A stretch of DNA of 29,509 bases, taken from assembly GCA_037380845.1 (NCBI GenBank), contig JARRRI010000032.1, positions 1-29,509 of the forward strand, read 5' to 3'. The stretch comes from Candidatus Sulfobium sp. (lineage in GTDB: Bacteria > Nitrospirota > Thermodesulfovibrionia > Thermodesulfovibrionales > UBA6898). Below the pieces are notes generated by a model. The model saw only the letters and a list, made by a program, of their open reading frames with translations, searched no databases and was not told the origin of the DNA. How positions within the stretch are numbered: the first letter of the stretch is position 1; each line of letters begins with the position of its first letter. This document shows positions 1 through 727 of this stretch, piece after piece. Made by a program: the position numbers and the translations under genes.

Positions 1-99
1 CGTCTCCACCATTCCCTGCCATCCAAGCTACACGGCTTCCGGCTCTTGCCGTGACGGGACTCTCACCCGCAAGTAAGCAGTACCCTTCGCTGGGCACGC
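1..99 (-). mobile_element. 5' end (start of domain I) of a group II intron, class C-like; continues beyond the left edge of the window
   Basis: The minus strand from 99 reads GCGTGCCCAGCGAAGGGTAC-TGCTTACTT-GCGGGTGAGAGTCCCG-TCACGGC-AAGAGCCGGAA-GCCGTG-TAGC. This gives a GUGYG-like 5' end (GCGUG variant), a GUGCCC/GGGUAC hairpin, the GGGUGAGAGUCCCG element and a further stem ending in UAGC. The order matches the 5' end of bacterial IIC introns as I recall it. The RT ORF and domains V/VI are outside the window. Confidence 0.8.
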
Positions 100-120
100 T
101 CAATAGTCAAGTCTGACCCC
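100..120. repeat. REP-like palindrome arm TCAATAGTCAAGTCTGACCCC (minus strand GGGGTCAGACTTGACTATTGA), forming the intron 5' exon
   Basis: Directly abuts the intron 5' end. Its core AAGTCTGACCCC recurs at 134-145. It resembles GGGGTCAG-type extragenic palindrome arms (recollection, not searched). Confidence 0.5.
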
Positions 121-153
121 ACCAGGCGCCACAAAGTCTGACCCCACCAGGCG
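109..153. repeat. 20-bp exact direct repeat AAGTCTGACCCCACCAGGCG (109-128 and 134-153)
   Basis: Read directly from the sequence; period 25 bp. Confidence 0.95.
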
Positions 154-361: not shown

Positions 362-541
362 TCAGACTACTGAAATCCTGAAAAGTTCATTGCTTAATAA
401 TTTAACTGAAACCGCAGCAATTTTTAAATTCTTTGTTTGAAGGGTCTTCTTAATGATCCGGCACCCGAAAATATCCCGTAGGTCTTTTGGTATCTTCGCA
501 CGGAAATAGTAGTATCCCGGAAAGCGGTAAAGATGTCTCAC
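362..541 (-). pseudogene. Truncated tyrosine integrase remnant: DUF6538-like N-terminal DNA-binding domain only
   Basis: GTG at 541 with GGGAG upstream gives 59 aa, (M)RHLYRFPGYYYFRAKIPKDLRDIFGCRIIKKTLQTKNLKIA. This fits the DUF6538 pattern (Y..R...YYFR..VP.DL....G...I..SL.T). The region is AT-rich, lies next to the tRNA 3' end, and no catalytic domain follows. Confidence 0.7.
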
Positions 542-565
542 AAGGCTCCCTTCCGCCCCAAAAGA

Positions 566-585
566 TGACCTAAACGGTGACCTAA
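566..585. other. Candidate integrase arm-type binding sites: TGACCTAA x2 at 12-bp period
   Basis: TGACCTAA at 566-573 and 578-585, between the tRNA 3' end and the integrase remnant. Confidence 0.45.
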
Positions 586-614
586 TTTGGGACTGAAGCC
601 TATGAGTAAAGAGG

Positions 615-648
615 TAACCCATTAAAATCCTTATAAATCAATGGGTTA
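615..648. promoter_or_regulatory. Inverted repeat TAACCCATT/AATGGGTTA containing an IHF consensus site
   Basis: Arms at 615-623 and 640-648. Positions 636-648 (AATCAATGGGTTA) match WATCAANNNNTTR exactly, immediately 3' of the tRNA CCA end. Confidence 0.55.
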
Positions 649-650
649 AA

Positions 651-727
651 TGGTGGCGGTGCAGGGAATTGAACCCCGGACACTGCGGATATGAGCCGCA
701 TGCTCTAACCATCTGAGCTACACCGCC
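651..727 (-). tRNA. tRNA-Met(CAT), elongator type
   Basis: 77-nt cloverleaf GGCGGTGTAGCTCAGATGGTTAGAGCA-TGCGG-CTCATAT-CCGCA-GTGTCCGGGGTTCAATTCCCTGCACCGCCACCA with encoded CCA. The G1-C72 pair and the lack of three consecutive anticodon-stem G-C pairs of the GGG/CCC type argue against an initiator tRNA. Confidence 0.96.

Follow-up and report, generated by a model that had tools for sequence, protein, structure and literature searches.

Background

The group II intron RmInt1 of Sinorhizobium meliloti, which is endonuclease-less, homes into the insertion sequence ISRm2011-2. Most bacterial group II introns are placed between genes or within other mobile elements, and those of class IIC use DNA hairpins, according to reviews (PMC12584367, PMC7306698, PMC4424553), one of which has bacterial introns "hide" in insertion sequences (PMC7306698). 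Repetitive extragenic palindromic (REP) sequences, imperfect palindromes with a GTAG or GTGG head, are dispersed as solo copies and as inverted doublets (REPINs), and an inverted pair of them encloses the gene of a Y1 transposase, the REP-associated tyrosine transposase or RAYT (Nunvar 2010, PMC2817692). A group II intron of Pseudomonas putida KT2440 is entered as REP-associated, in 2 of 9 copies, in the table of Tobes and Pareja 2006 (PMC1525189). Here we describe a related situation in a stretch of 29,509 nucleotides, called the window, which is the entire contig JARRRI010000032.1 (C32) of the Candidatus Sulfobium sp. assembly GCA_037380845.1 (G000; 104 contigs, 3.18 Mb, shortest contig 2,693 nt) and whose position 1 is the contig end. 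On the minus strand, positions 1 to 99 are the first 99 nt (the start of domain I) of a group II intron which is about 1,875 nt long and, to judge from its relatives, endonuclease-less. We consider it probable that this is a mobile intron that retrohomed into a 27-nt terminal repeat of RAYT type, and that the normal homing site of its lineage is this family of motifs.

Each of the described systems shares features with this locus. As in RmInt1 and other introns in insertion sequences, an endonuclease-less intron has its natural homing site in another mobile element, but the target here is a short terminal repeat, including its solo and doublet copies, rather than a transposase gene, and it is the end of the element and its promoter that are cut. 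The REP/REPIN and RAYT systems have in common with ours a Y1 transposase gene between two inverted short repeats and the dispersal of these repeats as solos and inverted doublets. Here, however, the single repeat is non-palindromic, has a GGGG rather than a GTAG head and is present in low copy number (5-24 per genome), and in one related genome (G040) the whole unit is multi-copy and insertion-sequence-like. The P. putida intron likewise adjoins REP sequences, in 2 of 9 copies, whereas in our lineage the association is seen at 15 of 16 junctions and at a fixed base of the repeat. In a literature search on group II introns with REP, RAYT, REPIN and Brocadia we found no such lineage described, the table of Tobes and Pareja being the nearest entry.

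Results and discussion

The intron start and its second copy

That positions 1-99 of the window are a group II intron start is confirmed. Read on the minus strand, its boundary with the exon falls between 100 and 99, as GGGGTCAGACTTGACTATTGA / GCGTGCCCAGCGAAGGG or, over a longer span, cgcctggtGGGGTCAGACTTGACTATTGA / GCGTGCCCAGCGAAGGGTACTG. Positions 1-121 of the window recur at 70-190 of another G000 contig, C17, with one mismatch in 121 nt, and C17 carries 69 nt more of the intron, which makes 168 nt readable there. The two copies share the junction and have different outer flanks. The minus strand of C17:2-141 matches Rfam RF02003 (group-II-D1D4-4) over the full model with 108.2 bits (E 2.6e-24); the truncated piece in the window, C32:7-72, gives 31.7 bits, below the cut-off of 49. 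The 168 intron nucleotides of C17 are nearest, at 92% identity, to the intron of locus L037 (L-numbers denote individual loci drawn from genomes and metagenomes). A search of plasmid DNA returned a single weak match of 84 nt.

The length of the intron comes from four marsh-metagenome runs (X1, X2, X7 and X8), whose Logan contigs were aligned to C17:1-600; X1 has no cover past position 200, and the entire interval is spanned by no Logan contig. A unitig of 1,875 nt in X8 terminates exactly at C17:168, the base preceding the exon, and differing flanks branch there. The intron start is therefore GCGUG, and the repeat measures 1,875 nt. A unitig of 1,895 nt in X2 shares its far end with that of X8. 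The same junction is tied to at least four flanks in the Logan contigs, and in X2 the depth of the intron is 114 against 31, 45.5, 5.3 and 8 for the flanks. One X8 contig links the first base of the intron to CCTTGACCCTAC, which is the 3' end of related introns (compare L025 and L041); this head-to-tail junction has a depth of 21.8 against 87.8 for the intron, and could reflect either tandem copies or a circular form.

Many contig ends of G000 overlap by exactly 119 nt. As a long repeat the intron broke the assembly, and the rest of it is unassembled. Searches of G000 itself for domain V (best RF00029 match 19.2 bits, on C40, unrelated) and for a GIIM maturase domain were negative, which is uninformative given that repeats of about 1.9 kb are missing from this bin, and clustering of the contig ends brought out no intron 3' end. 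A resemblance of the C19 flank to the intron start had no Rfam match and was dropped as chance.

The exon motif is a transposon-end repeat

The 5' exon at positions 100-120 (minus strand), GGGGTCAGACTTGACTATTGA, corresponds to the outer 21 nt of a terminal repeat of 27 nt, GGGGTCAGACTTGACTATTGACATTTG, as judged from copies of the motif in G000 and in relatives, and the intron lies inside its TTGACA (TTGA^CA). Five copies of the 20-21-mer are present in G000. Two are followed by the intron (C17 and C32) and three are intron-free (C77, C19 and, with one change, C93), the unoccupied copy on C77 reading on as GGGGTCAGACTTGACTATTGACATTTG. When 40 genomes of relatives were searched with a 190-nt exon-plus-intron query, the motif GGGGTCAG was found as an exact 22-mer at 15 places in four of them (G016 seven, G040 five, G006 two, G021 one), and the intron part was matched in none. 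Most of these 22-mers continue ACAT(T/C)TG, and the unoccupied motif continues CATTTG. The motif is not a product of chance, and since copies of it are present without the intron it is independent of the intron. Folded as single-stranded DNA, its 27 nt form only a 4-bp GTCA/TGAC hairpin (-2.2 kcal/mol, z -0.98; 33 of 200 shuffles fold equally well), and beside the exon motif there is no terminator-like site and no T-tract.

In G016 (contig C25; L011, positions 518 and 1521) two inverted copies of the motif, about 1 kb apart, flank an open reading frame (ORF) of 315 aa that matches Pfam Y1_Tnp with 57.1 bits (cut-off 23), and on G048:C93 (L088) an inverted partner of the motif lies at +1036. 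The first 516 nt of C77 encode the last 171 residues of a protein 68% identical to the G016 transposase and end in the motif, which is thus the right end of such an element (C77:510-531); of the RAYT element only this right end is seen in G000. In G040 four identical starts of the RAYT unit have different outer flanks, which indicates that the unit is mobile and multi-copy. RAYT-like genes also start after the motif in L007, L008, L012, L015, L019, L046, L052, L088 and L090, in the last four immediately behind it. Variants of the motif are present in 13, 7, 1 and 24 copies in the Nitrospirota genomes G041-G044, against 0-1 for a reversed control, and in 5-15 copies in five Brocadia-type genomes, against 0-3. 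Where the motif has a palindromic partner at all, this is another copy of it, 70-1,000 nt away; in G044, inverted doublets spaced by 71-108 nt have a folding energy of -24.3 kcal/mol (z -7.65), and no inverted doublet is found among the copies in G000. The motif is the inverted end of what are probably RAYT-type (Y1/HUH) elements, with solo copies and REPIN-like doublets in Nitrospirota and Brocadia genomes. Cargo such as TnpB was looked for in the solo copies of G000's relatives by eye, without a Pfam scan, and only ordinary ORFs were seen.

Some further traces of these repeats and genes were noted. G000 has RAYT-like genes at C35:25979-26837 and C22:84882-85829, which are 50% and 31% identical to the G016 transposase; the former is split into two ORFs, and the GGGGTCA motif is near neither. 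The start of C67 and the end of C81 have 140 nt in common (97%), beginning CATTTG. In G041 (Thermodesulfovibrionales) the motif variant GGGGTCAGGTCTTGTTTCTTG is adjoined, 75-90 nt further on, by a variant like that of the window, complete in L051 and without the GGGGTCA head in L063, which suggests nested or neighbouring insertions of different repeat families.

Outside the motif, the window has a unique flank at 121-133 (minus strand ...tgtggcgcctggt), whose outer 8 nt recur at 146-153. Positions 134-153 (minus strand) are the second copy of a 20-nt direct repeat, aagtctgaccccaccaggcg on the plus strand, the first being at 109-128, and consist of a partial motif start, GGGGTCAGACTT, and 8 nt of flank. 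This arrangement is a common one: the 7-15 nt of flank outside the GGGGTCA head are often tandemly repeated, separated by 0-12 nt of motif start, and 18 of 90 motif copies show this as compared with 2 of 533 control positions. Besides the window (109-128/134-153) it is seen at C77:521-560 and in L008, L013, L021, L024, L025, L040, L084, L086, L092, L095, L096 and L100, and in L024 the duplicated interval spans the whole motif and 39 nt of the intron. The duplication fits no known transposition scar.

The target of the lineage and how it is read

Related introns were collected with two scans. The first 22 nt of the intron, used on metagenomes, gave 10 loci, and a protein-guided scan of species genomes, for which L031 supplied the 433-aa query, gave 11, in metagenome-assembled genomes of Brocadia/Brocadiaceae, Nitrospira, Nitrospirae and Thermodesulfovibrionales. 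Sixteen 5' sites are readable (C17, C32, L022/29, L023, L024, L025, L026, L027, L028/30, L032, L034, L036, L038, L040, L060 and L097), L031 and L037 having been left out of this count because their flank is too short. Some 3' exon is present in 11 intron copies, with at least 475 nt downstream in nine; the 3' exon of L026 is limited to 14 nt.

At 15 of the 16 readable junctions, [GA]G[GA]GTCA stands 20-22 nt upstream of the intron. The joined exons of L034 equal the unoccupied sites L075, L080 and L095 across more than 60 nt, which fixes both boundaries of the intron. In L039 the intron's 3' end is followed by ACAAATAG..TATAAT..ATG of a RAYT gene, with the RAYT homologue within 30 nt; this was the only one of 21 loci where tblastn found a RAYT homologue downstream of the intron. 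The exons of the two outgroup introns, which come from plasmids of Bacillus and Bradyrhizobium, are unrelated.

A hairpin located some 215-225 nt into the intron, GCCU-GUCAAUNNU-AGGC, has a loop (of the GUCAAU type) that serves as exon-binding site 1 (EBS1) and pairs with the last 4-6 bases of the exon (intron-binding site 1, IBS1). Its CAAU pairs with ATTG in L025, L026, L031, L034 and L097, and L036 has the pair CAAG/CTTG instead. The loop of L038, CUUCAAUUU, lies one base off, and so does its site, AATTGA^C, which has the register of the window's TATTGA^C. Pairing is complete at exon positions -4 to -1 in seven of ten introns. Given the 15 of 16 junctions, the empty sites identical to joined exons and the EBS1/IBS1 covariation, homing of the lineage into this repeat family is supported. 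A delta-delta' pairing with the first base of the 3' exon was also tried and rejected; it fits the introns with A at this position and fails for L036 and L038, which have C.

An earlier note on this DNA had anticipated part of this. It had proposed a group II intron with a GCGUG start, which is borne out by the RF02003 match of the C17 copy and the unitig boundary at C17:168, and an exon with a small GTCA/TGAC hairpin in place of a terminator, as the folding agrees. Its suggestion that this exon is a repeated extragenic motif connected with HUH/Y1 RAYT-like transposases holds, inverted copies bounding a Y1_Tnp ORF, and so, by the junctions, empty sites and covariation, does the proposal that the lineage homes into the motif.

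Several intron copies are derived or rearranged. L025:449-1102 is an ORF-less derivative of 654 nt that likewise occupies the motif and precedes a sugar-transferase-like ORF. In L022 and L029, from two related assemblies, intron nt 1-105 abut an inverted copy of nt 1-726 head-to-head, through a rearrangement or an assembly artefact. L027, L029 and L030 are truncated or rearranged copies.

The class of the intron

The intron-encoded protein of the relatives, of 433 aa, contains RVT_1 and GIIM, matches TIGR04416 with 385 bits and stops after domain X, without an endonuclease domain. The motif in its reverse transcriptase (RT) domain 5 is SADD in eight of nine members of the lineage (L024, L026, L031-L034, L036 and L037); group II RTs normally carry YADD. 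The nearest solved structures are IIC RTs (7uim, 188 bits, and 6ar1, 185 bits) as against 142 bits for a IIB protein and 129 for a IIA protein. Nearer relatives, which are unsolved, belong to Bacillus and Bradyrhizobium plasmid introns (52-54% identity) and have FADD, a hallmark of the g2 group (Toro and Martinez-Abarca 2013, PMC3552965).

Domain V was recognized at four loci (RF00029, 40.5-48.4 bits) in relatives whose 5' ends show 80-92% identity. It reads GAGG-GAAAA-CCUC, with a loop of 5 nt, and about 120 nt follow up to the intron's 3' end, domain VI being long. The RNA amounts to 654 nt in the ORF-less L025 and to about 706 nt outside the ORF in L026. A 5-nt domain V loop, an RNA of 450-700 nt and long domain VI stems are given as traits of classes E and F in the part of Nagy et al. 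2013 (PMC3753933) that concerns them. The best Rfam domain I model is D1D4-4 in six of six relatives, as in C17, and the IIC crystal structure 4FAW is placed under D1D4-3 in the relevant part of PMC3965019.

Because of the D1D4-4 model, the 5-nt domain V loop, the long domain VI, the size of the RNA and the FADD relatives, we file the lineage as probably class F-like and not IIC, an assignment read from relatives. Class F/g2-type introns, which are endonuclease-less, reportedly have a IIB-like RNA (Simon 2008; Toro and Martinez-Abarca 2013; Nagy 2013). Our lineage shares with them the endonuclease-less protein, the domain V loop, the long domain VI and an RNA in the range of 450-700 nt; its nearest plasmid relatives have FADD, and the Bacillus relative also starts GCGUG. 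It differs from them in its SADD motif, in that no covarying EBS2 was found, and in having a multi-copy transposon-end repeat as its homing site. With IIC introns, which occur at terminators and attC sites, it has in common the missing endonuclease, the short EBS1-IBS1 pairing, multi-copy intergenic targets and the closest solved proteins. Unlike them it has a target of conserved sequence without a stable hairpin, a larger RNA and another Rfam model, and it inserts inside the repeat, not a few bases past a stem. The small ribozyme of about 400 nt that is an IIC trait was not found in the relatives; the missing EBS2, taken alone, would fit IIC. In view of the class E/F hallmarks, the model and the FADD kin, the earlier note's description of the intron as class C-like is thus not supported.

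Alternative explanations

Several observations weigh against homing of an intact intron into a RAYT-type repeat. Only 99 nt of the intron can be read in the window (168 nt on C17), and for the EBS1 loop, the protein, the 3' end and the 3' exon we rely on relatives 80-92% identical to it. The exact junction pattern had no match in genome contigs of other species. One junction, L027, is without the motif, only about 170 nt being homologous there, and the 4-bp EBS1 pairing contains mismatches in three of ten introns (one each in L032 and L037, two in L040). A complementarity search with G-U pairs allowed, which was swamped by low-complexity matches, brought out no covarying EBS2; the only sites common to all nine introns pair with the GGGGTCA part, which is invariant and offers no covariation. 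As there is no covarying EBS2, GGGGTCA may be read in some other way. As for the repeat, there are just five copies in G000, the motif is non-palindromic and has a GGGG head without the GTAG of classical REPs, and the G016 transposase scores 78.9 bits with NCBIfam REP_Tyr_transpos (REP-associated tyrosine transposase), just under the cut-off of 80.

The intron might have entered a transposon end once and then travelled as a passenger, so that the two G000 copies and the additional metagenome flanks were spread by movement of the RAYT element or its end and not by independent retrohoming. Such a history agrees with the identical 21-nt exon of both G000 copies, the intron parts of which differ at one position in 121, with the L024 duplication, which runs through motif and intron as though these were one end, and with the mobility of the RAYT unit in G040. 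However, the gap of about 1.9 kb between the outer 21 nt and the rest should cripple the end, related introns sit in divergent variants of the motif, in different phyla and with matching changes in EBS1, and empty sites identical to joined exons exist; moreover, in 10 of the 11 copies with a readable 3' exon the downstream DNA examined shows no RAYT homologue. We regard this history as unlikely. It is also conceivable that the window holds a dead fragment, a truncated stump beside the motif comparable to the piece of about 170 nt in L027. This would account for the 99 visible nucleotides and for an assembly without domain V and GIIM, and truncated copies do exist elsewhere (L027, L029 and L030), but contigs join the flank of this very locus to the motif in three of the four runs (X2, X7 and X8), the pieces starting 30 nt ahead of the flank, a contig of 1,764-1,895 nt extends over the intron in X1, X2 and X8, and the depth of the intron is about three times that of a single flank. 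The contig break with its 119-nt overlaps is, furthermore, what a long repeat is expected to produce, and a stump is in our view very improbable.

The model of the earlier note was that of a IIC intron which recognizes a DNA hairpin, as IIC-attC introns do, the exon being one arm of a larger extragenic palindrome. In its favour are the short EBS1 pairing (4-6 bp) with no EBS2 found, a protein that lacks the endonuclease domain and has IIC RTs as its best solved relatives (188 and 185 bits), and the long hairpins that inverted doublets of the repeat can form. A single motif, however, has no stable hairpin, so that recognition of the IIC-attC kind gains no support, and the palindrome expected from joining the exons did not appear: an inverted TGACCCY partner is present in none of the 11 3' exons, nine of them with at least 475 nt, and the empty motif continues CATTTG. 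The 5' exon is conserved by sequence rather than by structure. The class evidence points away from IIC as well, with D1D4-4 best in C17 and in all six relatives and 4FAW under D1D4-3 (PMC3965019, the part cited above), with the 5-nt domain V loop, domain VI of about 120 nt and RNA of 650-700 nt that are class E/F traits (PMC3753933, likewise), and with plasmid relatives at 52-54% identity that carry FADD. Little credence can be given to this model. By eye, the flanks of L025 show a weak imperfect palindrome around the site, which is not general.

Consequences of insertion

In the reading that we prefer, retrohoming into a RAYT-type repeat, the intron would have inserted at GGGGTCAGACTTGACTATTGA^CATTTG, in the terminal inverted repeat of a RAYT-type Y1/HUH element, and would belong to a SADD-marked lineage of Nitrospirota and Brocadia-type genomes. 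In the relatives the EBS1 loop pairs with the last 4-6 bases of the exon, and in one of them a one-base shift of the loop accompanies a one-base shift of the insertion point. Recognition of the invariant GGGGTCA, 15-21 nt upstream, may fall to the protein of the intron or to an RNA segment that does not vary. As the protein is without an endonuclease domain, cDNA synthesis would presumably be primed at replication forks, a mode established for endonuclease-minus introns in the part of PMC4424553 that treats them.

Insertion would have two effects on the transposon, splitting TTGACA, the -35 hexamer of the RAYT promoter that is supplied by the repeat, and detaching the outermost 21 nt from the rest of the transposon end. 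The empty left end of a Brocadia carolinensis element (L088:1133-1160, minus strand) reads TTGACA-16-TATAAT, a 12/12 match with an upstream TG, before the RAYT start. In the occupied copy L039:1125-1154 the hexamer becomes TACACA, with TTG^ACA as the insertion point and TTGA^CA as that of the window (100-103). The hexamer in the motif of L090, where the -10 box is TGTAAT, was missed by the promoter scan. The intron may thus be a parasite of the transposon, for which the many copies of the latter would serve as safe landing sites.

Further into the window, positions 362-622 (minus strand) hold an ORF of 86 aa in the same orientation as the intron, which contains DUF6538 (53.9 bits, cut-off 27) and looks truncated, and positions 651-727 (minus strand) hold a tRNA-Met (CAU) transcribed toward the intron. 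DUF6538 is the usual N-terminal domain of island integrases. The ORF resembles the integrase stump of a tRNA-targeting island, and the repeat with its intron lies about 210 nt beyond it. Read-through from the tRNA-Met or the DUF6538 ORF is a possible source of intron transcription.

Conclusions

A more far-reaching proposal would make the SADD lineage a dedicated hyperparasite of RAYT-like single-strand transposons. It would recognize the GGGGTCA end where replication forks or HUH intermediates expose it in single-stranded form, silence or retune the transposase through the split -35 box, and cross between phyla together with the repeat, and the tandem duplications would stem from an undescribed mechanism of insertion or of nick and restart. 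We offer this as a tentative speculation and think it rather doubtful in its entirety.

The more limited conclusion, that a class F-like lineage homes into a RAYT/REP-type terminal repeat in at least two phyla, would add a new kind of multi-copy landing site for group II introns and would extend RAYT/REPIN-like systems to Nitrospirota and anammox bacteria. The motif variants, the one-base shift of register and the empty sites form a natural series in which the specificity of an endonuclease-less intron with an EBS1 pairing of only 4-6 bp may be followed. Introns of this kind break metagenome-assembled genomes precisely at these sites. With the transposon end and its promoter severed by the intron, the two parasites would be in direct conflict.

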